A DNA stretch of 64,000 nt. Origin: Bacteroidota bacterium (lineage in GTDB: Bacteria > Bacteroidota > Ignavibacteria > Kryptoniales > JAKASW01). The translations under genes and the position numbers were made by a program. Below the pieces are notes generated by a model that worked only from the letters and a program-made list of their open reading frames with translations, made no database searches and was not told the DNA's origin. The first letter of the stretch is position 1. Each line of letters starts with the position of its first letter. The stretch covers positions 8,838 through 72,837 of the forward strand of contig JAJYRM010000004.1 in the NCBI GenBank assembly GCA_021794075.1. Reading direction: 5' to 3'. Below, in pieces: positions 8,550 to 47,245 of the stretch.

Positions 8550-8673
8550 AACATCCTCCTTGAATCTGAATATGAGTTTAATCTCGACATCGATCCCGCC
8601 TCGCAACTAGGCGCAAAATCAAATTCCGATTTAGCATTTGCGCATTTTTCTTCGCGGCATGAACTGTTCATTT

Positions 8674-10398: not shown

Positions 10399-10571
10399 TC
10401 CAGAAAGAATTGTAGACAAGCGGCTGGAAGACATCGCGTTGTTAGATTCGCGGGTCATCGACTCGAAGGACGGCTTACGATATTTCGTTTCGTAGGATGA
10501 CTGTCTAATCTGTAACAAGTTCTTAACCCTTCTTTCAAGTTTCCGTTCTTAAATGCTTGCAAGAAGAAAAG

Positions 10572-10866: not shown

Positions 10867-12222
10867 ATGAAGAATGCACAATTCGGTTTTGACCAGTTCT
10901 CCGCGATGATGAGGCGGAGGAAGATACCTTTTCTGATACCATTCATAATAATATTCGCCGCTTGCACCGTAGGCGCGTTTATCATGCAGAAGAAATACAA
11001 ATCCTCAACGACCATACTGGTACAGGGAGATGGCGTGTTGAATCCGCTTGTGAGCTACACAATGGCGGTCACTATGGCTTATGACGGTCAGCTTCACAAC
11101 TTTGACGAGATCATTTATAGCAGACCGGTTATAGAAGCGCTCATCGACAGCCTTGGTTTGCATAAACAGGAAGAGACCGCGGCCCAAAAGGAAGCGTTGA
11201 TAGCCGCCATAACAAAAAGCATAACCACAGACCGGAAGGGGACCGATATATTCACGATATCTTATTTCGCGCCAACTCCGGAGATGGCGCAGAGAGGCGT
11301 CGAGGTCCTGTCAGAATTGTACATTCGAAAGAGACTAACGATACAAAACAGCAAGAATGACTTTGCCGTCCAGTTTTTCACTCAAAGGCTGAACAGCCTG
11401 CGGAACAAATTCGAAAAGAGCCAGAATCAACTAGTGGGGATGATGAAACAACATATAAGTGCCATCCCGGAAAGCGACCGGGAGTTGTATACGCAAATCG
11501 GGGACTACAACAAACAAATCGACAAAATTCAAAGCACAATATCGAACTATCAACAGGCCCTGGCGATACTCAACAAGACAGACTTAGCCCACCCCAAGAC
11601 GATCGATCTTAAGACCCTGTATGAGATTCCGCTGCTCGGAGTCCCTTACGGAAAAGAACTCGAATCCGCGCTGGTCCAATACGATGGACTTCTCCACAAG
11701 TATACAGAGCACTACCCTGCCGTTGAAGACGCGAAGGCAAATCTGCTCCAGCTCCTTCAGCGGTCAAGATCGGTCACGCAGTCAGGTCTCGTCGCCAAAG
11801 AAAATCAAATATGGCAGATTGAAAAAAGTAGGAACAAGGAGATTGCCACCGTTCAACGCGCCACGGTGGCCTCGAGCCAGGACCAGGATGTCCGATCGAA
11901 TTTCAATATATACAAAGGATTGTACAACGACATGCAGGTGAAACTGGAGCAGGCGGAGACCAGCAGGGCTCTTGGAGAAAACGGGGCAAGAGAATTCGTT
12001 GTGCTTGACCCCCCCGCGCTTCCCACGCGACCGGCCAAGCCGAACAAGCCGCTCATGGTAGGCGCCGGCTTGATTTTGGGCCTGATTCTCGGCCTCCTCT
12101 CCGCAGGCCTTGCCGAGATTTTCGATTCGAGGGTAAGAACGCCGATGGACATCGATCTGTACAACAAACCAGTAATAGCGTTCCTTCCCGCCGTCGATGG
12201 CTATAGCAAACATGCCGATTAA
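10867..12222 (+). CDS. Polysaccharide co-polymerase / chain-length determinant (Wzz/GumC-like, PCP family)
   Basis: 451 aa. N-terminal TM after RRRKIPFLIPFIIIF, a Wzz-type start (KYKSSTTILVQ), a long coiled-coil periplasmic region and a C-terminal TM (PLMVGAGLILGLILGLLSAGL). Confidence 0.85.
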   Translation: MKNAQFGFDQFSAMMRRRKIPFLIPFIIIFAACTVGAFIMQKKYKSSTTILVQGDGVLNPLVSYTMAVTMAYDGQLHNFDEIIYSRPVIEALIDSLGLHKQEETAAQKEALIAAITKSITTDRKGTDIFTISYFAPTPEMAQRGVEVLSELYIRKRLTIQNSKNDFAVQFFTQRLNSLRNKFEKSQNQLVGMMKQHISAIPESDRELYTQIGDYNKQIDKIQSTISNYQQALAILNKTDLAHPKTIDLKTLYEIPLLGVPYGKELESALVQYDGLLHKYTEHYPAVEDAKANLLQLLQRSRSVTQSGLVAKENQIWQIEKSRNKEIATVQRATVASSQDQDVRSNFNIYKGLYNDMQVKLEQAETSRALGENGAREFVVLDPPALPTRPAKPNKPLMVGAGLILGLILGLLSAGLAEIFDSRVRTPMDIDLYNKPVIAFLPAVDGYSKHAD

Positions 12223-12239
12223 CTAAGAAATCAATATCA

Positions 12240-13016
12240 ATGAGCGTCTTCGACATTAACGATGCTGCCGATAATTCACGAAGCAGAGATAGCAGGAGAG
12301 AACAATCAATGTATGAAATGAGTGACGACTTGATAGAATCGCCATGGGGAAATGATGACAGGCAGGTTCAGAAGTATATCCGTCCTGTGAAAATAAGCGC
12401 AGTCGCGGGTGACATGGTTGACAAACGAGTTGTTTCCTATCAACTTTACAATTCGTTCAACTATTCCGCGATATACCCTTCCGGTCGATACTCGCCAAAA
12501 TTCAGTATAGGGGTAACGAGTCCTGGCCGCAGCGAAGGAAAGACAACCGCAGTTTGCAACCTCGCGGTAGCGCTCGCGATGGGAACGGGTAGAAAAACTG
12601 TCCTGGTGGACTTCAACATTATCAGGCCGAGTATCCACCAAATCTTCGGCATGTCCCCCGGTCCCGGACTTGCGGAAGCGCTAAGCGGCTCGGACATTTG
12701 TGTCGTTCCCACGCAGCTTGATAATCTCTTCGCACTTCCGGCCGGCGACAGGCGCTTGTTCACTCCGAGCAAATTGTCGTCCTTCCGGGAGGTGCTTTCT
12801 TCACTCAATAGCTCCTTTGAATTCGTACTGGTGGATCTTCCCCCGGCCGGTTCGCGCGCATTTCCCACGATAATCGTAAACCAACTCGGCGGGCTCCTTA
12901 TCGTGGTACGGCCCAAAATGACAAAGCGTCGGGAGGTTGGAAAGGTTTTCAGGAAACTGCATGACAAGAGCGTGCTCGGGTTCATTATGAACGGGGTTGA
13001 CGAAGATGACATCTGA
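12240..13016 (+). CDS. BY-kinase-like P-loop ATPase (CpsD/CapB/EpsG type), no C-terminal Tyr cluster
   Basis: 258 aa. Walker A region GVTSPGRSEGKTT, Walker A' VLVDFNIIRPS, Walker B FVLVDLPPA. The tail ..NGVDEDDI has no tyrosines. Confidence 0.8.
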   Translation: MSVFDINDAADNSRSRDSRREQSMYEMSDDLIESPWGNDDRQVQKYIRPVKISAVAGDMVDKRVVSYQLYNSFNYSAIYPSGRYSPKFSIGVTSPGRSEGKTTAVCNLAVALAMGTGRKTVLVDFNIIRPSIHQIFGMSPGPGLAEALSGSDICVVPTQLDNLFALPAGDRRLFTPSKLSSFREVLSSLNSSFEFVLVDLPPAGSRAFPTIIVNQLGGLLIVVRPKMTKRREVGKVFRKLHDKSVLGFIMNGVDEDDI

Positions 13017-13214: not shown

Positions 13215-14441
13215 GTGAATCTCTATCCACAAACTAGGAAGGTCCGTGGGTTGGACCGGTATTTGAAATCGATCGGCATGGATGTTCGCCGATATGGGAA
13301 TGCCTCCCATGCGTTCAAAGACATACTTGTCTATCTCGGGAGAAAGTCCGGCGTTGAAAAGCCGAACGTCATAATGCCCGCGTATATCCCGGCTAAGCTC
13401 TACCGCACGGTGGTGACTGCCGGTTACGAGCCTAAGTTCTACGAAATCGGAAAGAGATGCGCTTTTAATCCCGAAGAGGTCGAGGGCCTCATCGACGATC
13501 GCACGACGTCGATCTTCGCGATTCATTACTTCGGGCATCCGGCGGATATCGAGCCGCTGTCGAACATTGCCGCGCGAAACCACATCGCGCTCATCGAAGA
13601 CTGTGCGCACGTTCTCCTCGGCTCATACAACGGGAAGGCTCTAGGGTCCTACGGCGACTTCGCGATTTTCAGCACCAGGAAGATGCTACAGTTGTCTGAT
13701 GGCGGTATGCTTGTCATGAACAGAAGCTGCCCCGACCTCAAAGCCAGTTACGGCCCAAGGGTCCGAAGCATTTACACTCTCGCTAACTTTCTGTCATCCA
13801 GGGTAAAACGCGGTTACATGCAGATTTCGGGCGGAAACGATTTTCTCCGTGTAACACGTCCGACCGAGGTCGGCTGGCTGGATCCGCGCAGGCCGCTCGA
13901 ACTCAATGTCAAGAAGATGTCTTTGTTCACCGCGCTCTACGGAAGGGCCATCGACTTAAACAAGATCTCAATGATCAGGAGAGAGAATTATATGAGGCTA
14001 ATTGAGAGGCTCAAGCCGTTCTCTTTTCTCGAGCCGATGTACGATGATCTTCCCGTTGCGTGGACTCCTTACAGTCTTCCGATGATGACTCGCGAACAGG
14101 ACCGGACCTTTCTTCAAGTTGAGCTTCTCCGGCGCGGCATCAGCTGCGGACTGGGCTGGCCGGAGTCACCTTTCGACGAGCGGCTGACCAGAACTCAAGC
14201 CCTCGCGAACACTGTTATCGAGTTCCCGACACATCCCCTTATGACATCGCGACAGTTTGACAGAATCATAGAGGCGTGCGAATCATTCGAGAGCGGCATT
14301 TCTTCACGAAAAGAAGAGGACGTACATCCCGATACAAGGTTATCCAAACAAGATTCCATTATGCCGGCGAGCGTGCCTCAGGCTCGGGGAACTAAACTCC
14401 TTCAGAAGGGTGCGGATGCGGCGAGCGCGGTTCGGTTATGA
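13215..14441 (+). CDS. DegT/DnrJ/EryC1/StrS-family PLP-dependent sugar aminotransferase
   Basis: 408 aa. IMPAYIPAKL...IFAIHYFGHPADIEPLSNIAARNHIALIEDCAHVLLGSYNGKALGSYGDFAIFSTRKML..SDGGMLV matches the family core, including the Lys-containing FS..K motif. GTG start as in the ORF track. Confidence 0.8.
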   Translation: MNLYPQTRKVRGLDRYLKSIGMDVRRYGNASHAFKDILVYLGRKSGVEKPNVIMPAYIPAKLYRTVVTAGYEPKFYEIGKRCAFNPEEVEGLIDDRTTSIFAIHYFGHPADIEPLSNIAARNHIALIEDCAHVLLGSYNGKALGSYGDFAIFSTRKMLQLSDGGMLVMNRSCPDLKASYGPRVRSIYTLANFLSSRVKRGYMQISGGNDFLRVTRPTEVGWLDPRRPLELNVKKMSLFTALYGRAIDLNKISMIRRENYMRLIERLKPFSFLEPMYDDLPVAWTPYSLPMMTREQDRTFLQVELLRRGISCGLGWPESPFDERLTRTQALANTVIEFPTHPLMTSRQFDRIIEACESFESGISSRKEEDVHPDTRLSKQDSIMPASVPQARGTKLLQKGADAASAVRL

Positions 14442-14513
14442 TGGTTTCGCATCAAGTTAAAGAATAGTTTTTTCAGGAATTACAATACAACGTAAACCAA
14501 ACGGAGAGCAAAA

Positions 14514-15341
14514 ATGAGTGGATTGAGAATTTCAAACGGAGCGCAGGTGAATACCGCGTTAAAAGAGATGGTACCGCTGACTTCACTATTCGATTCCCGG
14601 CCCAACCCTGAAACATTGCGGGAATGCCTAGAACAATTCAGCCAGCGCATTTCCGCAATCAGGGTGCTCATAGGGCATAACGAACACACTACCGTCGGCA
14701 CCACACGGCAATGCATCCAACTGGCCCACAGGTTCAACGTCCCCACGGTTACCCGCGTCGAATCTCCAAGGGTTGTCATCAATCGGGGAGTCCTCCCGAT
14801 CTACCTCGATCTCTGCGGAGAAACCGGTGTAAGCAGGATACAGTTTAGAAAGACGAGTCTTCAACACGGCATCAATCCCCGAGAGGTTGTTGCGCTTGCT
14901 GACGACAGGAACCTGGACATACAGTTTGAAATCACGGAGTGGTCTGCCACGAGAGGCCCGGAGAGCGAACAAGCTGAAATCAACGAGGGGATCGAATGGC
15001 TTGAAGCCGGCGCTTTAAATTTGGTCGCTAGCGTAACACGCCAGTCCGTTGTGAATGAGAACGGGCGTCAAAGCCAGATGAACATGCAATTTGCCGAAAG
15101 ACTGGCCAGGACATTTGGACTGCACGCTGTGATGTTCACGGCAGCGACCGAATCGGAGCAGACACCGCTGCTGAAAGCCTTCGGCGAGGAGACGCACATA
15201 TGCGATGTACCATTTGCCGATGTGGTCCGGGTGGAAAAGATGAGATCCGAAGTATCACTGGTTACATCCTTTTCAGCGGAAGTAGACTTCACCCTAGGTT
15301 ATCGCCGCAGCGACAATAGACCTGGGCAAAGGAATTACTGA
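14514..15341 (+). CDS. ComA-like (phosphosulfolactate synthase family, PF02679-like) TIM-barrel protein, divergent; paralog 1
   Basis: 275 aa. By-eye collinearity with archaeal ComA: I..I+...G; YLDLCGETGVSRIQF ~ FIEACKELGFEAVEI; LLKAFGEETHICDVPFADVVRVEKMR ~ ILKFGSSVNLANIAFDEVISLETLR. Clear paralog of 20973-21785. Coding confidence is high; the family call is tentative. Confidence 0.6.
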   Translation: MSGLRISNGAQVNTALKEMVPLTSLFDSRPNPETLRECLEQFSQRISAIRVLIGHNEHTTVGTTRQCIQLAHRFNVPTVTRVESPRVVINRGVLPIYLDLCGETGVSRIQFRKTSLQHGINPREVVALADDRNLDIQFEITEWSATRGPESEQAEINEGIEWLEAGALNLVASVTRQSVVNENGRQSQMNMQFAERLARTFGLHAVMFTAATESEQTPLLKAFGEETHICDVPFADVVRVEKMRSEVSLVTSFSAEVDFTLGYRRSDNRPGQRNY

Positions 15342-35592: not shown

Positions 35593-37158
35593 ATGGATTT
35601 CATGACCGAGACAACACCGTGGAGACGTGATAAGACAGGGAAATTTGTTCCCGGCCTTCCGTTCGACTTGACCGTCCTTTACCTCGTGATAGTTTGTATT
35701 TCGCTACTCTTCGCGTTCGTGCTCCTGAAGACATACGGCAACATCGAGGCGTCCGTTGCCCTTCTGGTAGTATTCATGGTCCTGTTTCTGTCATTCTACA
35801 GGGTTGATCTCGCGTTCGACCTCTTCGTGGCGATGGTTCTGTTCTTCGACCAATTCATCGTCGTGCCCGGGGACCCGATAACCGAGAAGGTGGGATATTT
35901 CGATAATCTCAAGCAAAATCCGCTCCTCCCACCGACTTCAATCGGAGTAATGAATCCGCTGGAGATACAACTTTTCCTGATGATGTTTGGACTTTTCCTC
36001 GCAATGTGCGCGAGGAAGAATGCGAAATTCCAACGTGTGCCTGTTTGGGGATTGGCCCTACTGTTCACAACGGCGATGATCCTATCGCTGGCTCATGGGC
36101 TCGCGACCGGCGGCATCTTTCTAAGGTCGCTCTGGGAGATCAGGGCACTCTTCTATTTCCTCCTGCTGTATTTCCTGGTCCCGCAAATCATACAGACCAA
36201 AGAACAGATCTATACGCTCCTCTGGATTTTTGTCGTCATGATTGCCGTGAAAGATTTCCAGGGTGCATTAAGGTTCGCGGTGCTCGGTTTTCATTTCAGG
36301 GGTAATCTCTGTCTTACCAATCATGAAGATCCGGTTTTCACCGTTGACCTCTTCATACTCCTGTTCGGTCTTCTCCTTTTCGGTGTGAAGATGAAGCAGC
36401 GTACCGCGATCCTGGCACTGATGCCCATATTCTTACTGGGGTTCTACGCCGGAAAGCGAAGGGCGGCTTACGCGGGCTTCATCGTCTGCGTGATAGTATT
36501 CATGCTTATGTTGAACAAGAAAGAGAGGGCTGTTTTTTACAAATACTTCATCCCAGCCCTGGTGTTAGTCGCGATATATTCGGCGATTTTCTGGAACTCA
36601 CACGGCAGGCTCGGCGCGCCGGTCCGGATGATAAAATCGGGCCTCATCGAAAGCAAGAAAGCGGATGGGTCGCACTACTCTTCCAACCTCTACCGGATAG
36701 TTGAAAGGTATGACCTGGCCGCGACAGTTAAACACTCGCCGATAATCGGGATCGGATTCGGCAAGAAGTACCTTCAGCCTCTGCCGCTCGTAAAGATAGA
36801 CTTTCCCTTGCAGGACTGGATACCTCATGATGAAATACTCTGGCTGCTCGTGAAAATGGGAGCCGTAGGCTTCTTCACGTTCTGGCTTTTCATCGATGGG
36901 CTGCTCTTTGAAACCGTATCCATTACGAAGATTGTGAAGGACCCATTTCTGAAGGCGATGTGCCTGATGATCGCGGCAGCAATAGTCAATCAGATGGTCG
37001 TCTCGTATTTCGATCTGCAGCTGACCTACTACAGGGACATGGTATTCCTCAGCACTCTATGCGGCCTTCTTCCGACTATTAAAGCGCTGCACAGCGCGCA
37101 GATTTCCGAGGAGAACGCTCCGGCGCCCCCGCCGCTCTCGGATGGAGATCGGCAGTGA
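35593..37158 (+). CDS. O-antigen polymerase/ligase-like (Wzy_C-type) integral membrane protein
   Basis: 521 aa with at least 10 TM helices. It has a large loop with ...GKRRAAYAGFIV... and a periplasmic segment before the final TMs, typical of Wzy/WaaL-like proteins. Confidence 0.75.
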   Translation: MDFMTETTPWRRDKTGKFVPGLPFDLTVLYLVIVCISLLFAFVLLKTYGNIEASVALLVVFMVLFLSFYRVDLAFDLFVAMVLFFDQFIVVPGDPITEKVGYFDNLKQNPLLPPTSIGVMNPLEIQLFLMMFGLFLAMCARKNAKFQRVPVWGLALLFTTAMILSLAHGLATGGIFLRSLWEIRALFYFLLLYFLVPQIIQTKEQIYTLLWIFVVMIAVKDFQGALRFAVLGFHFRGNLCLTNHEDPVFTVDLFILLFGLLLFGVKMKQRTAILALMPIFLLGFYAGKRRAAYAGFIVCVIVFMLMLNKKERAVFYKYFIPALVLVAIYSAIFWNSHGRLGAPVRMIKSGLIESKKADGSHYSSNLYRIVERYDLAATVKHSPIIGIGFGKKYLQPLPLVKIDFPLQDWIPHDEILWLLVKMGAVGFFTFWLFIDGLLFETVSITKIVKDPFLKAMCLMIAAAIVNQMVVSYFDLQLTYYRDMVFLSTLCGLLPTIKALHSAQISEENAPAPPPLSDGDRQ

Positions 37159-37198: not shown

Positions 37199-38698
37199 AT
37201 GGCTTACTCGATAGCAAAATCCTTGTTTAAGAACAGTGCGCTGATGATGATGGCACAGGCCGCGACATGGGTATCAGGACTCGTTCTCCTGATGGTCGTA
37301 GCGCGTTACCTCGGCAGCGCGGACTATGGATACTTGTACCTTGCGCTTTCCATTCAGACTATTTGCCAGTGGGTCATCGATTACGGCGGCCAGAATTACA
37401 TACCGAAAGAAGTCTCGCGGAAGAAGACAGATTCGTCCGACCTCATGACGCAGTCTATGCTCCTCAGAATGGGGCTATGGGTGCTCTCGATGATCGTTAC
37501 CTTCGCTCTTTGCCTGGTAGCCAACTATTCGACCCGAGTCATAATACTGATCATGGTTCTGGTGTTCTCTAACCTGTGGGTTAATCTGACGCTCCTGCTC
37601 CGTTCCGGGTACCAAGGGTTTGAAGACATGAAATACCCGTCACTTGCGACGGTAGTCGATCGAGGCCTGCTTACAATTACCGTAGTCCCCGCCCTTCTGC
37701 TCGGGCTGCGGGTAACGTCGGTCGCCATACTAATGGCGCTCACGCCGTTCGTCAACTTCCTGATCTGCTTAAGGTTTTCCAAGAAGATGTTCCGGCTGAA
37801 CATCTCTTTACAGATGGACAAGTTCAAGCTGCTGTTGAAAGAGGGATTTCCCTATTTCCTGTGGTCCCTCTTCGGTGTCGTCTACTATCGAATCAATGCG
37901 ATAATGCTTTCGCTGATGACTCCGGCTTCGGTTGTCGGTTGGTATGGAGCGGCTTTCAGATTCTTCGGCATACTCATGTTTCTCCCCGCGATATATTCAG
38001 CGGCCCTTTATCCCATACTCACAAGGCTGAGCCGGTCCGAGGCGCCCTCAATGATTAGCACGTCTCAAAAAAGCATCTCGTTCCTACTCCTTGCGGGGAT
38101 ACCGATAGCGGTCGGCTTGATCTTCTTCTCGCGGTTTATCGTTCAGCTCCTGTTCGGCTTGAAGGAATTCGGACCCTCCGCAGTCATTATCCAGCTTTTC
38201 TCCGCGGGGATGCTCCTGACATATGTCGATTTCGTGTTCGGCGGAATCGTTCTCGCCATTGATAAACAGAAACAGTGGGCAATGATCGCTTTCGGAGCGA
38301 TGGTAGTAAACATCGGGATGAATTACCTACTAATCCCTTACTTCCAGACCCTTTCGGGAAACGGCGGAATGGGCGCGGCAATCGCGACAGACCTGACGGA
38401 ATTATTCGTAATGATATCGGCCCTGTTTCTGATGCCGAGTAAACTCTTCTCACGGAAGCTTCTGGCAACTTGCGGGAAAGGTGTCGCAGCAGGGGTAGTG
38501 ATGGCGTTATCGATAGCGGGCGCGGAGTCGATCGGCTTCCCTTACCTCACGCTTCCCGTGATTGGGCTCGTCGCTTACGTGATCGCATTACTGGCAACAG
38601 CTACATTCAACGTTTCACAATTAAGACATCTGCTTGCCGAGATTTCAATTCCCGGCTTTCTCAAAACATTTTCAGAAAAAAGGAGAGCGAGCGCATGA
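37199..38698 (+). CDS. wzx: Wzx-type polysaccharide flippase (MOP superfamily)
   Basis: 499 aa, about 14 TM. N-terminus SLFKNSALMMMAQAATWVSGLVLLMVVARYLGSADYGYLYLALS is typical of the Polysacc_synt family. Confidence 0.85.
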   Translation: MAYSIAKSLFKNSALMMMAQAATWVSGLVLLMVVARYLGSADYGYLYLALSIQTICQWVIDYGGQNYIPKEVSRKKTDSSDLMTQSMLLRMGLWVLSMIVTFALCLVANYSTRVIILIMVLVFSNLWVNLTLLLRSGYQGFEDMKYPSLATVVDRGLLTITVVPALLLGLRVTSVAILMALTPFVNFLICLRFSKKMFRLNISLQMDKFKLLLKEGFPYFLWSLFGVVYYRINAIMLSLMTPASVVGWYGAAFRFFGILMFLPAIYSAALYPILTRLSRSEAPSMISTSQKSISFLLLAGIPIAVGLIFFSRFIVQLLFGLKEFGPSAVIIQLFSAGMLLTYVDFVFGGIVLAIDKQKQWAMIAFGAMVVNIGMNYLLIPYFQTLSGNGGMGAAIATDLTELFVMISALFLMPSKLFSRKLLATCGKGVAAGVVMALSIAGAESIGFPYLTLPVIGLVAYVIALLATATFNVSQLRHLLAEISIPGFLKTFSEKRRASA

Positions 38699-40791
38699 AG
38701 ATCCTGCACGTAACACCTTACTCCCCCGTCCCCCCAACATTCGGAGCTGCGCTGCGGATGTACCACATTCTCCGCGGGCTCGCACAGCTGCATGAAGTTA
38801 CGTTCGTCACTTTCGGGACAAAGAAGGATCTTGAAGGACTTAGATCTGCTTTCGGAGATTCGCTCGACAGCATTCACGTGGTGCCGCCAAACTTCCTCGC
38901 CCGCAGGCACCCGTGGCTCAGGTTATTGGCCGCCTTCCGAAGAAGCGAAAGTTTTTATACTCAATACACTAACGGCACGGAAATGCAGGCCGTTCTCGAC
39001 AGGCTCTATGAAAACAGCCATTATGATTTCACCATAGTCGAATTTCCGCACATGGGAAAATTCAAATTCGGCGCGGACACGATCAGCATTCTGGATGAGC
39101 ACAATGTCGAGTATTCAAATTTCGAGAGGATGTACAAGAACATTCATTCCCCCGCCAGGAAGCTGTTGTACTTCAGGGAACACAAGAAGACTTATCAGGA
39201 GGAGTTGAAAGCGTGCAAAAGCGTAGACGCGATTTTCACAACATCGATAAACGACAGCCAAATCCTTGATCGCGAAGTTCCGAGGAAGCCAAAATACGTC
39301 ATACCTAACGGCGTGGACACCGGATACTTCGTGCCATCCAAGGCCGAGCCCGAACCGTATTCGATGGTTTTTACAGGGACAATGGATTACGTGCCGAATC
39401 AGGATGGCGTGTTGTACTTCCTTGATGAAATATTCCCGCTCATAAAACAAGTTTTGCCTCAATCGAAGGTATACATAGTAGGAAAGAATCCGCCGAAGGC
39501 GATTACGCGAAGAGCGAACGTAGACACTATCGTGACAGGTTTCGTGGAAGACGTAAGGCCTTATACCTGGAAGGCCTCTGTGTACGTGGTGCCGCTGAGA
39601 ATGGGTAGCGGGACAAGACTGAAAATACTCGAGGGACTAGCCATGAAAAAACCGATCGTTAGCACAAGCATAGGCTGTGAAGGAATTGAAGTCAGGAATG
39701 GGACAGATCTCGTCGTGGCCGACAGCCCGGCCAAGTTCGCCGCGGAGGTGGTCGATCTGTTCTTGAACAGAGTGAGAGCGATAAGTCTTGGCGAGAATGG
39801 TTACGAACTCGTGAAGTCGCGATACGATTGGAGCGCTGTCGTCTCAAAAATGGATGACGCTTTAACGTCACTGTACAAAAAGAAGTACGGAAACGACAGA
39901 GATATCGGTTCTATCCAGATGAAAGAATCTCACAGCATCCCTGAACACCACGCGCAGGCGCAATACGAAGAACAGCACACTGTAAAAGTGCTTATGTATC
40001 ATCGTGTCGTCAACGACGAAACGCACATTGATCAGTATTCATGGAATGTGACCGTCTCTCAGCTCAGGAGACACCTTGAGCTCCTCGGCAAGTGGGGATA
40101 CACCTGCATTAACTTCGAGGATTACGCCCTTTTCCAACGGGGGAAGCTCAATCTTCCCAAGAAGCCCGTCATAATGACTTTCGACGACGGATACGACGAG
40201 ATGCACCGGAACGCTCTACCGATCATGAAAGAATTCGGCGCTCGCGCCACGGCATTCATACTTGGCGACCGCTCGATTAAATCGAACACATGGGATGTGG
40301 AATCGGGATTCGAAGGAGCGACGCTGATGGACGACGATCAGATACTTGAGATGAAAGACGCGGGGTTTGAGATAGGTTCACATTCCATGACACATCCGGA
40401 TCTCACCCGACTTTCCGAGCGCCGTGCCAGAAAAGAGATCTTTCAATCGAAGGAAATCCTGGAAGACTTGCTAGATTCTCCGGTCATCTCTTTCGCCTAC
40501 CCTTTCGGTTCCGCGAACAGCCTGATGGAAAGACTTGTGAAAGAAGCGGGGTACGATTACGGCTGCGGAGTATACTCGGGTCCTCCGAGATTCGCCCACG
40601 ACAAGTACGATATTCGCCGCATTCCCATAACTAGAAAGACGAACGCCGTCGATTTCGCATTGAAGATCCTGACCCCTTACGAGTATTATGAATGGATCAG
40701 ATGGGAAACTGGACGCATGATTCGCGGTAGCAAAGTCACCGTCGGCGTTCAGAGTGGAGCATCCGACGACGGAGAGGAAGGGACAATATGA
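38695..40791 (+). CDS. Fusion: GT4 (GT-B) glycosyltransferase + CE4/NodB polysaccharide deacetylase
   Basis: 699 aa from MKILHVTPYSP. The ATG overlaps the wzx TGA (ATGA at 38695-38698). GT4 core: FTGTMDYVPNQDGV...VVPLRMGSGTRLKILEGLAMKKPIVST. CE4 motifs: MTFDDGYDE, GSHSMTHPDL, FAYPFGS. No signal peptide. Confidence 0.85.
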   Translation: MKILHVTPYSPVPPTFGAALRMYHILRGLAQLHEVTFVTFGTKKDLEGLRSAFGDSLDSIHVVPPNFLARRHPWLRLLAAFRRSESFYTQYTNGTEMQAVLDRLYENSHYDFTIVEFPHMGKFKFGADTISILDEHNVEYSNFERMYKNIHSPARKLLYFREHKKTYQEELKACKSVDAIFTTSINDSQILDREVPRKPKYVIPNGVDTGYFVPSKAEPEPYSMVFTGTMDYVPNQDGVLYFLDEIFPLIKQVLPQSKVYIVGKNPPKAITRRANVDTIVTGFVEDVRPYTWKASVYVVPLRMGSGTRLKILEGLAMKKPIVSTSIGCEGIEVRNGTDLVVADSPAKFAAEVVDLFLNRVRAISLGENGYELVKSRYDWSAVVSKMDDALTSLYKKKYGNDRDIGSIQMKESHSIPEHHAQAQYEEQHTVKVLMYHRVVNDETHIDQYSWNVTVSQLRRHLELLGKWGYTCINFEDYALFQRGKLNLPKKPVIMTFDDGYDEMHRNALPIMKEFGARATAFILGDRSIKSNTWDVESGFEGATLMDDDQILEMKDAGFEIGSHSMTHPDLTRLSERRARKEIFQSKEILEDLLDSPVISFAYPFGSANSLMERLVKEAGYDYGCGVYSGPPRFAHDKYDIRRIPITRKTNAVDFALKILTPYEYYEWIRWETGRMIRGSKVTVGVQSGASDDGEEGTI

Positions 40792-42281
40792 TCGAGATGC
40801 CAACGGCATATTGGGACGTACCCTCCCCCGCTACCGAGATCATCGACAGGAAGCGCCCCGGCAACACTATAACCGTGCAACTTGTGACCGATATGTCGTC
40901 GTTTGCCGCGCTGGAGGGTGAATGGGACACGCTTGTATCAGATAGTTCAACGACAATCTTTCAAACTTTCGCCTGGCAATTTCTTTGGTGGAAACATTTC
41001 GGCTCACGTCCCGAGAATCATCTCTACATAGTGCTATTCAGAAGCAGTGAGAAGCTGATCGGCATTGCACCGTTGTTCATAAAGACTCTCTCACTATTTC
41101 ACTTCAGAATTAACAGGAAGCTCCTCCTCCTCGGCTCCGGCCTTGCCTCTCCGCATTCACCGGTACTCTCGCTCGAGAAGCAGGGTCCGCTCGATTATCT
41201 CGACATAATTTCCGCCCGAGGTTCCGAAGACCTTGTAGCGGATGCTTTTATAGCGCTTCTCCAGAACAGGAATAGGCTCTGGGACGAAGTCGAGTTCCAG
41301 AATCTTCGCGAGGACGGGACCGTCATGACGCATCTCTTGCTCAAATGCAAAGACCGCGATTTCTCTATCATCATGGAACACGAGGACACCTGTCCATTTG
41401 TCGGTTTGCCTGATAGTCTGGACAAGTTTCTCTACTCGATGAAACGGAGTGTCAGGCGTAATCTGCGCTACGTACAAAGGGGATTCCTCGAAAATCCTGA
41501 ATACAGTGTCGAGGACGCGGCGGCAAATGGAAACGCCGACGGCGCCCTTCAATTGTTGTCCCAACTTCATCAGAAGCGTTGGAATGAAATCGGATATCCC
41601 GGTCTTTTTGCGGATTCCCGCTTCGGAGCCCTTATCAAAGACATTTCGAAATCCCTCAAGCAAAATGGAAGGTTGTGGTTGAAGGTTTTGCGACACGAAG
41701 GCAAGGCGATCGCGGTGAACCTTTGCTTCAAATTCAACGGCACAATGTACACGTACGCCAGCGGTTTCGATCGTGATTCAGCTGCTGCGGGAACTTCTGG
41801 AGCAGGCTCTGCCCTGGTCTTCCAAAACATCATAGACTCAATAGAGTCACGATGCAGCGTAATCGACATGGGACGCGGGACGGAATCTTACAAATTTCAG
41901 TTCACCTCAAATACGCGCCAGAGCTGGCGGTTGAGATTGAAGCTCAGTGAAGAATCGAGCGCCGCGATCCGGGCCTACGTCTACCGAATTTATACTTTAT
42001 GGAACCGGGCGCTTTCAAGGTTCACCTGCGAGGTAACGATCGCAAGAGTTCTCATTAAAGGTAAAGGCGCCGTCCGCGGCATATCCGGATATATCTCGCA
42101 CCTCAGGGTCCGTCTGTTCGCAAAAATGGGAAGCTTCAGTAGATCGAAACCGGAAGGAGAGTCAAGATCTACCGGCGATGATAACAGTGCGGACGACGAA
42201 CGCTCTTCCCAAAAGGGATCGCCTCATCCGAAGAAAGGCAATGGAGTCGAGGATGCAGCCGAAACCGCCGGCGATAAATGA
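40788..42281 (+). CDS. CelD/BcsL-like GNAT (FemAB-like, Acetyltransf_6-type) protein 1
   Basis: 497 aa. FQTFAWQFLWWKHFG...LIGIAPLF; SMKRSVRRNLR; C-terminal GNAT half AVNLCFKFNGTMYTYASGFD. Acidic low-complexity tail. ATGA overlap with the upstream gene. Confidence 0.75.
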   Translation: MIEMPTAYWDVPSPATEIIDRKRPGNTITVQLVTDMSSFAALEGEWDTLVSDSSTTIFQTFAWQFLWWKHFGSRPENHLYIVLFRSSEKLIGIAPLFIKTLSLFHFRINRKLLLLGSGLASPHSPVLSLEKQGPLDYLDIISARGSEDLVADAFIALLQNRNRLWDEVEFQNLREDGTVMTHLLLKCKDRDFSIIMEHEDTCPFVGLPDSLDKFLYSMKRSVRRNLRYVQRGFLENPEYSVEDAAANGNADGALQLLSQLHQKRWNEIGYPGLFADSRFGALIKDISKSLKQNGRLWLKVLRHEGKAIAVNLCFKFNGTMYTYASGFDRDSAAAGTSGAGSALVFQNIIDSIESRCSVIDMGRGTESYKFQFTSNTRQSWRLRLKLSEESSAAIRAYVYRIYTLWNRALSRFTCEVTIARVLIKGKGAVRGISGYISHLRVRLFAKMGSFSRSKPEGESRSTGDDNSADDERSSQKGSPHPKKGNGVEDAAETAGDK

Positions 42282-42312: not shown

Positions 42313-43506
42313 ATGACCAGCCACGTTAACGCATTCGTGAACACGGAAGCGACCGCCCCGCAAGATATACAATTCCCGGAGACAGTCCACTTCCCGGCCG
42401 AAACAATTGTGGAATACGTTGATGACCTCGAGATGCTGCAGCAGATCCGAAGTGAGTGGGAGGGCCTGTCGTCATCATTTAACACACCGCTTCTCAGTCA
42501 TAACTGGTTCGCGTCTTGCGCGCACGCGTTCGGTTCCCATGAGCAGCCCGAAATTCTCATCATTCGGAGGCGCGGCGAGATCGAGGCGATTGCCCCGCTA
42601 GCCTTCAAGGGACATTTTCAAAAGAGGCTGGAAGTTATGGGAAGCTTCGTCACGAATGAACCAGGCGGAGTTATCTTTGCAGACCAGCGTTCTCTCGCGC
42701 AACTATGGGAAGCCGTGTGCGATCTACAAAAGACGGTTTTCCTGAAAGGATTCCGATTCGGTTCTCCGGAAGCTCAAGCATTGGAAAGCCTGCTCCACTC
42801 AAGACGAATCAAGTTCCTGGCGAGAGAAGAGCAACTCCCCTGGGTCAACACAAGGGGCGAATGGAAGGACTTCGAGAAGACCATCTCGTCCAGTCGGCGC
42901 TCAAGTTTCCGCAGGCTTCGCAAGCTTGCGGAGTCGAAGGGACAACTCGTTTTCGAAGAAGTGATTCCCACGCCCGAGAATGTCCAAGGTTATCTTGAAG
43001 AGCTTTTCAAAGTGGAGGCCGCGGGTTGGAAAGGAAGGACGGGAACCGCCATGAGGTCGTTTAAAGAGCTCGGCGAATTCTTCAGGACCTATTCGAGGCT
43101 GGAGGCTGAGGAAGGAAGGCTCAGGCTGTTCTTCCTCAAAGTCGGCGGACAGACTATCGCCGGCCAGCTTACCGTCGTTCGCGCAAACAGGCTCTGGATA
43201 TTCAAGATAGGCCATGATGAATCCTGGTCATGGTGCTCACCGGGGATTCTTCTCATGAACGAAGTGATCAAATATTGCTTCGACACGAAACTGGAAGGCT
43301 GCGAGATGCTCGGGAGCGACGAGCCATGGCTTCACATCTGGACCAACGAATGCCATACCGTGGTAACATACAGGATATATCCCAACGTTATTGCCGCGAT
43401 GTCGGATCTCCTGACAGATTTTGCTTACGTCGTGTCAAATAAAATAGCCACAAAGTTTGCGAAACAGAGAGGGGCGAGGCCTGCGAATGCTCACAAAAAT
43501 GCGTAA
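42313..43506 (+). CDS. CelD/BcsL-like GNAT protein 2
   Basis: 397 aa. LLSHNWFASCAHAFG...IEAIAPLAF; SSSRRSSFRRLRKL; IAGQLTVVRANRLWIFKIGHDESW. Confidence 0.75.
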   Translation: MTSHVNAFVNTEATAPQDIQFPETVHFPAETIVEYVDDLEMLQQIRSEWEGLSSSFNTPLLSHNWFASCAHAFGSHEQPEILIIRRRGEIEAIAPLAFKGHFQKRLEVMGSFVTNEPGGVIFADQRSLAQLWEAVCDLQKTVFLKGFRFGSPEAQALESLLHSRRIKFLAREEQLPWVNTRGEWKDFEKTISSSRRSSFRRLRKLAESKGQLVFEEVIPTPENVQGYLEELFKVEAAGWKGRTGTAMRSFKELGEFFRTYSRLEAEEGRLRLFFLKVGGQTIAGQLTVVRANRLWIFKIGHDESWSWCSPGILLMNEVIKYCFDTKLEGCEMLGSDEPWLHIWTNECHTVVTYRIYPNVIAAMSDLLTDFAYVVSNKIATKFAKQRGARPANAHKNA

Positions 43507-44335
43507 TAGAGTCACGAGCGCCATTGCTTCCCGGCATGTTGCCGGACATAAGCTGAGCGATGCCTTGCTGATATGCCGGTGGGCCGAATCGGAAGGGTTT
43601 AGAACCGTTATCTCTCCGTGGGCCGGAGCCCTCGATACCCCGCGCGACATGTTCAGCCGTTATGCAGCGGCTATCGAGGCCGTCACGGAGAAAAACGATG
43701 CCAGGTATGTTTCGATGAAGCTTGATTCGATCAACTACGACGGTGGATTATTCGATGATCTAGTACACCTCGCACGGGCAAGCCACGCACAGCTCCACAT
43801 CGATTCACTCGGTCCTGAAACGGCTGATGCTGCCCTCAGCTTCGTAGAAAGAGCCGTCACGTCAGGATACTATATCGGCTATACAATGGCTTCCAGGTGG
43901 CGGAGAAGTCTCACGGATGCGGAAAGAGTCGCAGACCTCGGCGTCCCAGTTCGGATTGTCAAAGGACAATGGCCCGACCCTTCCGGCCGGGCCATAAACT
44001 GCAGGAAGAACTTCACTGAAATCGCCGCTACGCTTTCGAAAAGGTGCCGCCGCATCGGTGTGGCGACACATGATGTGGTCCTCGCCAGAGAAGTCTTGAC
44101 GCGTTTCGTGGTTCAAAATGCCAACATCGAGTTGGAACAATTCTTCAGTCTTCCTCTCAACGGCGTGGCGCTCGCCAAAGAATTTGATCGGCCGTACCGG
44201 CTTTATATTTCTTACGGCCAACCGGGAATTCCGTACAACATCAGGTTCACGTTGACGCGGCCGAGGATCGCGGCGTGGGTGCTCGCTGATTTTGCCATCC
44301 ACGCGAGAAAGCCATGGGCTCAAAATCCTACTTGA
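43487..44335 (+). CDS. Proline dehydrogenase-family (PRODH-like) TIM-barrel protein
   Basis: Collinear with short bacterial PRODH: SRHVAGHKLSDAL..AESEGF; YVSMKLDSI; VRIVKGQWPDP; IGVATHDVVLAREV; YRLYISYGQPGIPYNIRFTLTRP. The start is uncertain (ATG 43487 or 43499; the ORF is open from 43457). Confidence 0.65.
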   Translation: MLTKMRNRVTSAIASRHVAGHKLSDALLICRWAESEGFRTVISPWAGALDTPRDMFSRYAAAIEAVTEKNDARYVSMKLDSINYDGGLFDDLVHLARASHAQLHIDSLGPETADAALSFVERAVTSGYYIGYTMASRWRRSLTDAERVADLGVPVRIVKGQWPDPSGRAINCRKNFTEIAATLSKRCRRIGVATHDVVLAREVLTRFVVQNANIELEQFFSLPLNGVALAKEFDRPYRLYISYGQPGIPYNIRFTLTRPRIAAWVLADFAIHARKPWAQNPT

Positions 44336-44408: not shown

Positions 44409-46571
44409 ATGAAATTAGTATTCATGGTCGTCAACCTCCTTTTCCTTGTGCCGGCATTAATCTTCTCGTCATACCTGGCTGTACTTACGATTGCCGCGGC
44501 GCTTAAGGGAAAACAATTCAAAGTGGCATCCGCAAAGTCTCAAAGGAGGTTTGCCATACTCGTCCCTTCGCACGACGAGGAGGCTGTAATTGAAAACACG
44601 CTCGCCAGCCTGGGGGACTTAGATTACCCGCGAGACAGGTACGACGTGATCGTTATCGCTGATAATTGCTCGGACAAGACGGCGGATATCGCCCGGTCGC
44701 ACGGCGACGTCGTCTTCGAAAGGTTCGATGACACGAACAAGGGAAAGGGACAAGCGCTGAGGTGGTGCCTAGACAGGTTAAAGAGCGAGGGAGCCGCATA
44801 CGACGCCTTCGTAATCATCGATGCCGACACAGTGGCCTCTTCAAATCTTCTCACGGTCATGAACGACTATCTTGAAGAAGGCGCTATGTGCATCCAGTGC
44901 AGTACGCTGGTCACCCCGCAGCCAGGCGCCTGGAGCCCGGAAATGACGCGGATCGGTTTCTTGCTTCACAATTATACCAGGCCGCTCGGCAAGAAGGCTC
45001 TGGGACTGAGCATGGGACTGAATGGAAACGGGATGTGTCTGTCGTCAAATCTACTCTCATCAATCCCCTGGTCGGCTTACTCACGCGTCGAAGACCTGGA
45101 GCACGCGCTGAAACTGGCAATTGAAGGCGTTCGCGTCATTTTTGCTCCTGAAGCCTACGTTCACGCCATTATGCCGACAGATTCCCGGCTCGCTGAGTCT
45201 CAGCGCCGTAGATGGGAACTAGCAAGGTTTTCAATAATTAAGAATTACACCTGGACGTTGCTTTCCGCCGCTATTCGAAAAAGATCTCTCGTAATCTTCG
45301 ATATGTTAATGGACCTCATCACCCCCGCCTTCGTGAACCTCTTTGTGTTGACAGTGGCGGGACTATTAGTTAATGCCGCCGGAACAGTCGTCCTGGGAGC
45401 GCCTTCCGCTCTGCTGTGGATGATGCCCGCCTATTTTGGCGCTCTCCTTCTTGAGACCTTCCACGTCGTCGGCGGGCTTAAGGTAGCGAACGCCGACCGA
45501 GGCGCCTACCGGACCTTAATGAGCACGCCGAAATATGCCTTGTGGAAATTTAAACTCTATATAAGGACAATAATAAAGGGCGACGATAAATTATGGCTAA
45601 GGACGGAGAGGGAGCGTTCTCTTCCCACGGGGAGCGCCGGGGAATCGACTGACACGTCGCGGAGAACCGACCGGAGCTCACATCGAGATGAGGGGTCTAC
45701 TCGCGGTGAGGAAAATATCAGATTTCCATTTCAACCAAGGGTAATGTCGGTACGGATTGACACTTTGAACGCTGAAGAAGTAATGAAAAAGATCGGACAG
45801 TTCCTGAAAGATTCGAAGCTCCATACTATTGCCACAGTTAATCCGGAGTTTGTGATGACCGCGCGGAAAGACAGGGAGTTTCTGCGGATTCTAAATCACG
45901 CTGATCTAAACATCGCCGATGGCATCGGTGTTCAACTTGCCATGAAGATGATGTATGGAGAAGTGTGCGAGAGGATTACCGGAGTCGATCTGACCTGGCG
46001 ACTTACTGGGCTTGCCGCCGAGCAAGGCTATTCTATTTTTCTGCTGGGAGCCGCGGAAGGAGTTGCCCGCGACGCTGCAGCGAAGATGAAAGAGAGATAT
46101 CCGGCGCTTAAAATCGCCGGATACTATTCGGGGAGACCCGACGAAGAAGGCCTGGTCGAATGCATCAATCTGACCAATCCCGACATACTCCTCGTCGCGT
46201 TCGGCGCTCCGAAACAGGAGAAGTTTATATTTAAGAACGCGAAAACTCTTAACGCGAAGATTGCGATGGGCGTGGGCGGGACATTTGATTATATAGCCGG
46301 AGTTGTTCCACGGGCGCCCGCCTGGATGAGACGACTCGGGATGGAATGGCTCTATCGACTCGCGAACCAGCCCGAACGAATAGGGAGAATTCTAACCGCA
46401 ACGGTGCGCTACCCTATCGCGATGTACTTTTACAAATCCTCAAAATCGTCGGTATCGAGAAAAGTCCTCGGCGAGTCACTCAATGAGTTGAAGTCAACGA
46501 TCGAAGCTCCATCGTCCCCCGCTCCCAGGGCGAATCTTGTTCATTCCAATTCGCGGGCAGTCGAGGTATAG
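44409..46571 (+). CDS. Fusion: membrane-embedded processive GT2 synthase (D,DxD,ED,QRRRW) + GT26 WecG/TagA/CpsF-family transferase
   Basis: 720 aa in a single ORF. N-terminal TM. FAILVPSHDEE, IADNCSDKT, VIIDADT, RVEDLEHAL, QRRRW. Four C-terminal TMs and a charged linker. Then VNPEFVMTARKD...ADLNIADGIGV...LLGAAEGV...LLVAFGAPKQEKF...GVGGTFDYIAG...RAPAWMRRLGMEWLYRL. Confidence 0.85.
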   Translation: MKLVFMVVNLLFLVPALIFSSYLAVLTIAAALKGKQFKVASAKSQRRFAILVPSHDEEAVIENTLASLGDLDYPRDRYDVIVIADNCSDKTADIARSHGDVVFERFDDTNKGKGQALRWCLDRLKSEGAAYDAFVIIDADTVASSNLLTVMNDYLEEGAMCIQCSTLVTPQPGAWSPEMTRIGFLLHNYTRPLGKKALGLSMGLNGNGMCLSSNLLSSIPWSAYSRVEDLEHALKLAIEGVRVIFAPEAYVHAIMPTDSRLAESQRRRWELARFSIIKNYTWTLLSAAIRKRSLVIFDMLMDLITPAFVNLFVLTVAGLLVNAAGTVVLGAPSALLWMMPAYFGALLLETFHVVGGLKVANADRGAYRTLMSTPKYALWKFKLYIRTIIKGDDKLWLRTERERSLPTGSAGESTDTSRRTDRSSHRDEGSTRGEENIRFPFQPRVMSVRIDTLNAEEVMKKIGQFLKDSKLHTIATVNPEFVMTARKDREFLRILNHADLNIADGIGVQLAMKMMYGEVCERITGVDLTWRLTGLAAEQGYSIFLLGAAEGVARDAAAKMKERYPALKIAGYYSGRPDEEGLVECINLTNPDILLVAFGAPKQEKFIFKNAKTLNAKIAMGVGGTFDYIAGVVPRAPAWMRRLGMEWLYRLANQPERIGRILTATVRYPIAMYFYKSSKSSVSRKVLGESLNELKSTIEAPSSPAPRANLVHSNSRAVEV

Positions 46572-46606: not shown

Positions 46607-47245
46607 ATGGAACTCGCCGAAGACTCATTGACGTTTCACAGGTTGAGCGAAGTCAGCCGTCGCACAAGACTGCGTTTGCGGAAATATTCTCTCATCTCTC
46701 ACATGAGGGGGTTGTGGTTCGCGAGAAAGCTGACGCGTCACGGGATCGTCGTCGTGACGGGAAGATACCCCGCGCCAAGAGTGCTGAATCGCGGAGGCAT
46801 AATCGATGTGAAGAACTGTGAATTCTACGAAGGCGTCAGGCTGGAGGTTTACAAGGGGGGCATTCTTACGATCGGCAACGGGACATACCTAAACAGGAAC
46901 GCGGTTGTGATAGCGGTCGGCAGAGTCGAGATAGGAAACGACTGTCGTATCGGCTGGGATGTCGTCGTAATGGATTCCGACCTGCATCCGGTAGACGCGA
47001 ACGATCAGCCGATAGAAAGCTCGCCGGTGATTATCGAGGACGATGTATGGATCGGATGTCGATCCATAATCTTAAAGGGGGTAAAGATAGGCAGACGTTC
47101 AGTCGTCGCGGCCGGTTCGATAGTCACAAAAGACATCCCTCCGAACAGTATAGCCGCCGGGGTCCCGGCGCGCGTCATCTCGAACAATCCGGAAAAAGCC
47201 GAATTCTTCCTCAAGAAAATCAAATCAGTACCGACCTCCGACTGA
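46607..47245 (+). CDS. Hexapeptide-repeat (LbH) acetyltransferase (maltose/galactoside O-acetyltransferase-like)
   Basis: 212 aa. IGNDCRIGWDVVVMDSDLHP...PVIIEDDVWIGCRSIILKGVKIGRRSVVAAGSIVTKDIPPNSIAAGVPARVI. Confidence 0.85.
   Translation: MELAEDSLTFHRLSEVSRRTRLRLRKYSLISHMRGLWFARKLTRHGIVVVTGRYPAPRVLNRGGIIDVKNCEFYEGVRLEVYKGGILTIGNGTYLNRNAVVIAVGRVEIGNDCRIGWDVVVMDSDLHPVDANDQPIESSPVIIEDDVWIGCRSIILKGVKIGRRSVVAAGSIVTKDIPPNSIAAGVPARVISNNPEKAEFFLKKIKSVPTSD

Follow-up and report, generated by a model that had tools for sequence, protein, structure and literature searches.

A GT4-CE4 fusion protein of Kryptoniota with a predicted cytoplasmic role in Wzx/Wzy exopolysaccharide assembly

Described transferases and deacetylases

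WahA of Aeromonas, also found in Vibrio, is described in PMC5372535 (citing Jimenez et al. 2009 JBC) as a characterised bifunctional GlcNAc transferase-deacetylase of the LPS core. Its chemistry is given there as transfer followed by deacetylation and, like the protein reported here (P0001), it is one cytoplasmic chain with an N-terminal GT4 and a C-terminal PF01522 deacetylase. Transfer followed by de-N-acetylation, as considered for P0001, is also known from Klebsiella, where WabH (GlcNAc transferase) and WabN (LPS-GlcNAc deacetylase) yield GlcN in two steps (PMC8552709); these are, however, encoded by separate genes and act on LPS core.

For exopolysaccharides (EPS), a sequence-only reading of the locus had started from the premise that known de-N-acetylases act outside the cytoplasm. 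This premise fails: HfsH, the deacetylase of the Caulobacter crescentus holdfast, is reported to be cytosolic in PMC5362036, which already proposes deacetylation by HfsH followed by acylation by the Fem-like GNAT HfsK. The HfsH/HfsK system resembles that of P0001: in both, a CE4 without export signal belongs to a lipid-linked EPS pathway, with GNATs as proposed acylators of the amine. HfsH differs in being a stand-alone protein and is only distantly related (P0001 scores 23.9 bits on the HfsH model NF050820, cut-off 400), and neither a holdfast anchor nor c-di-GMP control is indicated for P0001.

The CE4 half of P0001 shares with PplD (6DQ3), PgaB, IcaB and BA0330 a permuted barrel, an N-terminal VLMYH motif, a D-H-H triad, no MT4 and a displaced Arg (PMC8807736, PMC10967932). 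PplD, PgaB and IcaB, at about 25% identity, act outside the cytoplasm on finished polymers, unlike the predicted role of P0001, and none of the four is fused to a GT4. The family closest to the N-terminal half comprises the TIGR03087 (stp1) glycosyltransferases of PEP-CTERM/XrtA systems and PslH-labelled GT4s, which are normally unfused. A literature search for a described GT-CE4-Wzx fusion, and for WavL, found nothing.

The fusion gene and its cluster

The window, that is the whole stretch of DNA analysed (64,000 nucleotides), contains the following genes around the fusion.

6591..8606, minus strand: WecA/MraY-family priming transferase (PF00953), usually beside the cluster in relatives
9613..10518, minus strand: Wza-like export protein (by match to the relatives' Poly_export genes)
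10867..13016, plus strand: split Wzc, co-polymerase and tyrosine-kinase-like ATPase (relatives' loci)
13215..15341, plus strand: DegT-like aminotransferase and ComA-like gene, in the same cluster in relatives (relatives' loci)
35593..37158, plus strand: Wzy-like polymerase (PF04932; score on the Wzy_EPS model below its cut-off)
37199..38698, plus strand: Wzx flippase (PF01943), stop overlapping the start of the fusion
38695..40791, plus strand: GT4-CE4 fusion gene, 698 aa, P0001 (ORF call, Pfam, homologue alignment)
40788..42281, plus strand: GNAT 1 (PF13480), start overlapping the stop of the fusion
42313..43506, plus strand: GNAT 2 (PF13480)
43457..44335, plus strand: proline-dehydrogenase-fold (PRODH-fold) protein, kept in the cluster (annotation, relatives' loci)
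44409..46571, plus strand: GT2 (EpsU-like) fused to WecG/TagA, a HexNAc-type transferase (Pfam, family models)
46607..47245, plus strand: hexapeptide-repeat O-acetyltransferase (Pfam, family models)

P0001 is encoded by a single ORF of 698 codons, with the ATG at 38695 overlapping the wzx stop codon (ATGA) and the stop at 40791. The protein is divided as follows.

38695..39888, plus strand: GT4/GT-B domain, residues 1-398 (Pfam, TIGR03087 stp1, AlphaFold)
39889..39978, plus strand: variable linker, predicted to be disordered, residues 399-428 (pLDDT <50; 0-30% identity among orthologues)
39979..40728, plus strand: CE4 deacetylase domain of permuted NodB2 (PplD/PgaB/IcaB) topology, residues 429-678 (Pfam, alignment, fold match)

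The fusion of a GT4 transferase to a CE4 deacetylase had been proposed from the sequence alone, with a survey of the architecture as a check. The proposal stood: both Pfam GT4 and PF01522 match the one ORF, and 22 further clusters at 52-83% identity (one fragment identical to the P0001 gene left out) have the same fusion. In these the two domains are conserved, while the linker varies. Since so many other clusters carry the fusion, it is not an artefact of assembly or read-through. On the sequence evidence, P0001 is a genuine merger of two neighbouring surface-polysaccharide genes, one predicted to add a sugar and the other to remove the acetyl group of an amino sugar.

An upstream TTG start (38470) with a cryptic signal was ruled out: the extension is polar, it overlaps with wzx, and the MKIL-type start is the same in nearly all full-length homologues. 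A promoter scan yielded hits at chance level only. The highest 19-residue hydropathy in P0001 is 1.27, with no signal or transmembrane segment. In the AlphaFold model (mean pLDDT 81, pTM 0.56) residue 1 is the start of the first Rossmann strand, so that a signal peptide has no room. Hydropathy detected no transmembrane or signal stretch in the other fusions or in stand-alone CE4 orthologues; a hydrophobic peak (1.6-1.7 over 19 residues) at residue 339 of two homologues corresponds to a strand and a helix inside the GT-B domain. These data agree with the earlier prediction that the protein lacks a signal peptide, reveal no cryptic signal or membrane segment that would place the CE4 half outside the cell, and support a cytoplasmic P0001.

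The surroundings likewise support a role of P0001 in a lipid-linked (Wzx/Wzy) polysaccharide pathway, as judged by gene content. Since the cluster contains WecA and WecG and the window two glmS genes, HexNAc substrates fit. The GT2-WecG gene is fused in the window and in locus L150, whereas L001 and L004 have its two parts as separate genes. The linkage to adjacent GNATs, pointed out earlier for this locus, recurs elsewhere, with a PF13480 GNAT directly downstream in 11 of the 12 other fused loci. An export signal or membrane anchor and a synthase-type pga/ica operon, sought for P0001, were not found, the cluster being of the Wzx/Wzy type. The neighbours are wzy, wzx, the GNATs and GT2-WecG, not hldD or an O-antigen ligase.

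Active sites and relatives of the two halves

Pfam GT4 models cover residues 166-371 (PF13692, E 6.6e-25, 88.5 bits vs 27), and residues 1-397 of the AlphaFold model match GT-B enzymes (MshA: Z 32.8, rmsd 3.5, 352 aligned). The best full-length family model is TIGR03087 stp1 with 232.2 bits, below the curated cut-off of 316.65; some homologues of this half carry the PslH label (JGI). In the EX7E motif the second Glu (E313) is invariant, and the first position is Ser or Gly throughout the aligned orthologues. The GT4 half is only 11-19% identical to solved GT4s and the donor is hence not predictable.

PF01522 covers residues 486-622 of the CE4 half (E 2.8e-30; 105.3 bits vs a gathering score of 23.1). 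The predicted active site comprises:

39988..40002, plus strand: MT5 VLMYH, permuted N-terminal motif, H436 predicted to be catalytic (alignment to PplD)
40177..40191, plus strand: MT1 TFDDG (residues 495-499), predicted catalytic D497 and metal-binding D498 (alignment to PplD)
40381..40395, plus strand: MT2 HSMTH (residues 563-567), predicted metal ligands H563 and H567 (alignment to PplD)
40495..40509, plus strand: MT3 AYPFG (residues 601-605), oxyanion-hole backbone (motif alignment)
40618..40620, plus strand: R642, displaced Arg pairing with the catalytic Asp (alignment to PplD)

In the HMM alignment to 6DQ3, H436, D497, D498, H563, H567, F604 and R642 fall on H105, D167, D168, H223, H227, S264 and R302 of PplD. 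H436, D497, D498, H563, H567 and R642, which make up the full set of PplD catalytic and metal residues, are invariant across the 23 aligned fusions. All 24 fused CE4 domains have a complete PplD-type active site, except that one has Met in place of Pro in MT3. The TFDDG, H-S-x-x-H and YPFG motifs, the metal triad and the catalytic Asp noted in the sequence-only reading are thus confirmed, and misalignment of the metal or acid/base residues, which would have spoken against it, was not seen. PplD is the best structural match to residues 425-660 of the AlphaFold model (Z 27.5, rmsd 2.7, 225 aligned), in which a permuted (beta/alpha)7 barrel is seen (TM 0.84 by target, PplD); a single-sequence model of this half (pLDDT 44) was set aside. 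The PgaB and IcaB equivalog models scored below their cut-offs (86 vs 322 and 45 vs 248). We consider the CE4 half a predicted metal-dependent de-N-acetylase of NodB2 (PplD/PgaB/IcaB) topology.

An N-x-W-D motif marks the CE4 subgroup of P0001. To compare it with WahA, we inferred the WahA family from architecture and the gene order hldD-gene-O-antigen ligase. The CE4 halves of these hldD-linked fusions are 34-43% identical to that of P0001, have the same motifs including N-x-W-D, and form one clade with it in a quick CE4 tree (SH-aLRT 99). The GT halves, in contrast, have no significant BLAST match to each other and fall into separate clades. P0001 differs from WahA thus inferred in its stp1/PslH-like GT4 subfamily, an independent fusion event and a long disordered linker. 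Its genetic setting also differs, being a Wzx/Wzy EPS cluster that includes GNATs and not a cluster for LPS core. The design of the enzyme and its proposed chemistry both have published precedents; what appears to be new, by sequence comparison, is the different GT4 subfamily and the EPS setting.

Among characterised CE4 fusions the nearest one works on LPS core, and this lineage readily fuses neighbouring genes, as with GT2-WecG. P0001 might accordingly act on LPS core, or be a neutral fusion of operon neighbours whose CE4 plays no part in the polysaccharide pathway. We regard either as very improbable. No LPS-core genes (hldD, waaF) turned up in the annotated loci, and bacteria of the same taxonomic order carry separate WahA-type genes. 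Against neutrality, the catalytic residues do not vary, and among fused orthologues the two halves are equally conserved while the linker diverges.

Origin and proposed function

The fusion was found in eight of 25 same-genus genomes searched and is conserved in one clade of uncultured Kryptoniota. In a GT4 tree, 21 fusions form one clade (SH-aLRT 99) with two split forms nested inside; the GT4 and CE4 trees are quick and midpoint-rooted, and the order of fusion and fission that they give is suggestive only. Distant relatives have the GT4 and a signal-less CE4 as adjacent separate genes, and in the four unfused GT4 orthologues examined (4/4) the CE4 gene lies immediately downstream, in a wza-wzc-wzy cluster. 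Because distant relatives keep the two genes side by side, we infer an origin of the fusion from adjacent genes in one Kryptoniota lineage.

The loci are kin, and all counts of them overstate their independence. Some CE4 orthologues occur in other arrangements. Those of L121, L123, L124 and L126 are nested within the fused clade and lie directly after wzx or wzy; the P0001-type GT4 is lost, with wzx/wzy and a GNAT still adjoining. The CE4 of L148 has another GT4 as its fusion partner, encoded downstream, and lies in a Wzx/Wzy cluster with no GNAT within 10 kb. Same-genus orthologues in L122, L125, L127 and L128 are orphans, away from any gene of the cluster, and one fused locus (L003/L118) has no wzy, full wzx or GNATs nearby. 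An apparent CE4-GNAT fusion (P0203) was rejected as Rosetta-stone evidence, being a singleton on one short contig without MT5, MT1 and the Arg.

We propose, with a probability of roughly two in three, that P0001 works in the cytoplasm as a bifunctional enzyme of Wzx/Wzy exopolysaccharide assembly and arose by adjacent-gene fusion in one Kryptoniota lineage. WecA would prime undecaprenyl phosphate with HexNAc-1-P, and the repeat unit would be extended at the inner membrane face by WecG, GT2 and the GT4 of P0001, a retaining transferase. The tethered metal-dependent CE4 would de-N-acetylate one HexNAc of the Und-PP-linked unit before the Wzx flip, in line with the proposal for Caulobacter HfsH. 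The freed amine may stay as a charge or be acylated by the PF13480 GNATs, in line with the proposal for HfsK. By gene content the GNAT step is not obligatory, because L003/L118 and L148 have no GNAT nearby. The orphan CE4 orthologues of the same genus speak against the proposal. The fusion would chiefly bring together two enzymes of a single assembly line and would be optional. That the deacetylated residue is the one added by the GT4, as in WahA, has somewhat less than an even chance; one placed by WecA, WecG or GT2 is roughly as likely or more so.

Under a strict WahA-type coupling, which corresponds to the sequence-only reading, the GT4 would add GlcNAc from UDP-GlcNAc, the CE4 would immediately deacetylate that very residue, and re-acylation by the GNATs would follow. 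The CE4 clade and N-x-W-D motif common to P0001 and the inferred WahA family, the maintenance of the fusion across 52-83% identity and the GT4-CE4 gene order in distant relatives are consistent with this. We nevertheless find it doubtful, given the different GT4 subfamily, the CE4s which remain beside wzx/wzy and a GNAT after losing the P0001-type GT4, and the L148 fusion; the disordered linker and the pTM of 0.56 do not indicate a fixed channel. Channelling, in which the CE4 would take the residue that its own GT4 has just transferred, is unproven, since close orthologues of the CE4 also occur where the P0001-type GT4 is absent or where a different GT4 is the fusion partner.

The order of reactions could also be reversed. 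Cytoplasmic deformylases and deacetylases exist in O-antigen pathways (ArnD, WbmS), and DegT, ComA, PRODH-fold and GNAT genes often directly follow the CE4 (L008, L010, L123, L129). Together with these, the CE4 half might act on a nucleotide-sugar or another soluble intermediate, giving an unusual N-acyl donor then used by the GT4. This is distinctly unlikely, as the closest characterised relatives (PplD, PgaB, IcaB, WahA) use HexNAc already in a glycan, and the accessory genes vary while the link of CE4 and cluster is constant.

The significance of the proposed bifunctional enzyme is modest, and the fusion itself is unsurprising because one enzyme of GT-CE4 architecture has already been characterised and the architecture is found again across many phyla. 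The proposal would extend cytoplasmic de-N-acetylation of lipid-linked EPS precursors beyond Caulobacter, to a cluster that has not been characterised and that occurs in Kryptoniota, Ignavibacteria, Balneolota and related groups. The comparison also shows that the CE4 subgroup with the N-x-W-D motif has at least three different GT4s as fusion partners, and a soluble two-domain enzyme adjoining candidate acyltransferases is a convenient assay target. More speculatively, and probably not, WahA-like transfer and deacetylation on the Und-PP-linked unit might be the entry to an undescribed tailoring route, in which an unusual N-acyl or aminoacyl group is made and attached by the PF13480 GNATs together with the PRODH-fold protein and the DegT/ComA-like enzymes. 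Such a route, if true, would be a compact soluble system for testing the unproven deacetylate-reacylate model of HfsH and HfsK.

The fusion protein and its predicted cytoplasmic location

The GT4-CE4 fusion protein P0001 is real, intact and conserved. Its gene overlaps both neighbours, the wzx stop codon with its ATG and the start of the first GNAT gene with its own stop codon.

38695-40791, + strand: GT4-CE4 fusion ORF (P0001), 698 residues
In the window, all on one strand: wzy, wzx, the fusion, two PF13480 GNAT genes, a proline-dehydrogenase-fold (PRODH-fold) gene, GT2-WecG and an O-acetyltransferase gene

Pfam GT4 models match P0001 within residues 1-400, and PF01522 matches at 486-622. In the AlphaFold model (input of 23 homologues; mean pLDDT 81, pTM 0.56), a GT-B domain reaching residue 398 is followed by a low-confidence linker (400-426) and the CE4 barrel. 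By structure comparison of this model, the GT4 half resembles MshA-type GT4s (Z 32.8) and the CE4 half streptococcal PplD (Z 27.5, rmsd 2.7, 225 residues). Among the fusion homologues compared, linker identity is 0–30%, and the two domains are conserved to an equal degree.

The sequence-only reading had described P0001 as lacking a signal peptide. This was confirmed: peak 19-residue hydropathy is 1.27, the first Rossmann strand starts at residue 1, and neither a lipobox nor a twin-arginine motif was found in homologues. Hydropathy and structure, rather than a dedicated predictor, are the basis of the cytoplasmic assignment. Stand-alone CE4 orthologues have short, polar N-termini, indicating that the CE4 domain was already cytoplasmic prior to fusion, an event that caused no relocation.

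The CE4 motifs claimed earlier are present as TFDDG (495-499), HSMTH (563-567) and AYPFG (601-605). The topology of the domain is of the permuted NodB2 type: MT5 (VLMYH) is placed first, MT4 is missing and the Arg is supplied from later in the chain (PMC10967932). H436/D497/D498/H563/H567/F604/R642 align with H105/D167/D168/H223/H227/S264/R302 of PplD, where zinc binding and catalysis were demonstrated (PMC8807736). Since all 24 of the fused CE4 domains that were examined keep the Arg and the five His/Asp residues, the description ‘catalytically complete’ holds, at sequence level only.

Proposed function and relation to known systems

Most likely, the GT4 domain would add one sugar of the Und-PP-linked repeat unit that the CE4 domain deacetylates, and the latter would strip the N-acetyl group from one HexNAc of this unit, possibly the sugar that GT4 had added, at the cytoplasmic face, before flipping. 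The presence of WecA and WecG, with two glmS genes nearby, makes HexNAc substrates plausible. The freed amine would plausibly be acylated by the PF13480 GNATs, as gene linkage suggests; the deacetylation and re-acylation proposed by the sequence-only reading is the model put forward for Caulobacter HfsH/HfsK (PMC5362036).

In Aeromonas WahA, the glycosyltransferase domain puts GlcNAc on the LPS core and the esterase domain turns it to GlcN (PMC5372535); Klebsiella achieves the same with WabH and WabN (PMC8552709). When the CE4 half was used as query, 87 of the 96 further proteins beyond orthologues belonged to a second GT4-CE4 family. Members lie in LPS-core clusters, and for several the gene order is the one described for wahA, hldD-gene-O-antigen ligase; from this we infer the family to be that of WahA. 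In a supported clade, the CE4 halves of this family group with that of P0001, with which they also have an N-x-W-D motif in common, but the GT halves come from another subfamily. P0001 is thus WahA-like in design, HfsH-like in pathway and an orthologue of neither.

Among WahA-type fusions, a Vibrionaceae example (L033:4001-6325) has a further domain, a hexapeptide acetyltransferase, at its C-terminus, making a three-enzyme chain. In P0170, P0174 and related 418–430 aa proteins (Thioglobus, other marine Gammaproteobacteria), the GT-B fold before CE4 is reduced to its C-terminal half; a separate gene may encode the N-terminal half.

Distribution and origin of the fusion

The architecture recurs in 22 further 90% clusters (52–83% identity to P0001). 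Two carry the name Candidatus Kryptoniota, one having coordinates identical to a match in a same-genus genome. Among the 25 same-genus genomes searched, 8 encode full-length fusions and one more has a split adjacent pair; the search of other families turned up no orthologous fusion. One same-genus MAG (G008, L112-L116) has five fusion loci, 56–72% identical to P0001, to be explained either by paralogy of EPS clusters or by mixed binning.

For unfused GT4 orthologues, a CE4 gene lies directly 3′ within a wza-wzc-wzy cluster in all four looked up, one being Gracilimonas. In a quick GT4 tree, 21 fusions group in a single clade, inside which two split forms are nested, and P0121 falls outside, probably a separate fusion event. 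Together with that gene order, these quick trees fit an origin by fusion of adjacent genes with occasional re-splitting.

The surrounding EPS cluster

A GNAT gene lies directly downstream of the fusion in 11 of 12 other loci, which are kin. At one fused locus, wzy and the GNATs have been lost. Four CE4 orthologues that nest within the fused group come after wzx or wzy and have no GT4 of this kind before them, and in L148 the fusion partner of CE4 is the GT4 next in line downstream, with no GNAT within 10 kb. Links of the fusion to cluster genes are not obligatory, and CE4 tracks the EPS cluster more closely than this particular GT4. In the window, wecA, wza, wzc, DegT-like and ComA-like genes lie 20–30 kb upstream; in many relatives they are contiguous with the remainder of the cluster.

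Other genes of the window
43457-44335: PRODH-fold gene, conserved across most of these EPS clusters
44409-46571: EpsU-like GT2 fused to WecG/TagA, a second fusion in the operon; L150, the closest relative, shares it, and L001 and L004 have the two parts split
47256-50129, - strand: 957-aa multidomain protein whose C-terminal domain is of the HAD type; its gene is linked with the cluster in L001, L007, L009, L112 and L150
56-1888 and 17378-19354: glmS-like genes, the second apparently divergent in the isomerase half
14514-15341 and 20973-21785: ComA-like genes
15346-16821, 22036-23481, 23515-24786, 24864-26351 and 26807-30082: secreted GH18 chitinase-like genes
52752-56239: two large c-type cytochromes, both multiheme and rich in CxxCH motifs
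58412-60802: cytochrome c maturation gene, following these cytochromes

The glmS-like and ComA-like pairs, which lie around the cluster, suggest local duplication. The five GH18 genes, with a visible DxxDxDxE motif and mostly a C-terminal sorting tail, sit between the two halves of the cluster, which GH18 genes also flank in L001 and L006; their products possibly act on a HexNAc-containing polymer. The PRODH-fold gene is not known to have a role in EPS clusters.

Both the proposed chemistry and the architecture of P0001 have known precedents, of which the protein is a variant. The accessory set (GNATs, PRODH-fold, DegT and ComA) poses a more intriguing question than the fusion and constitutes a separate finding.
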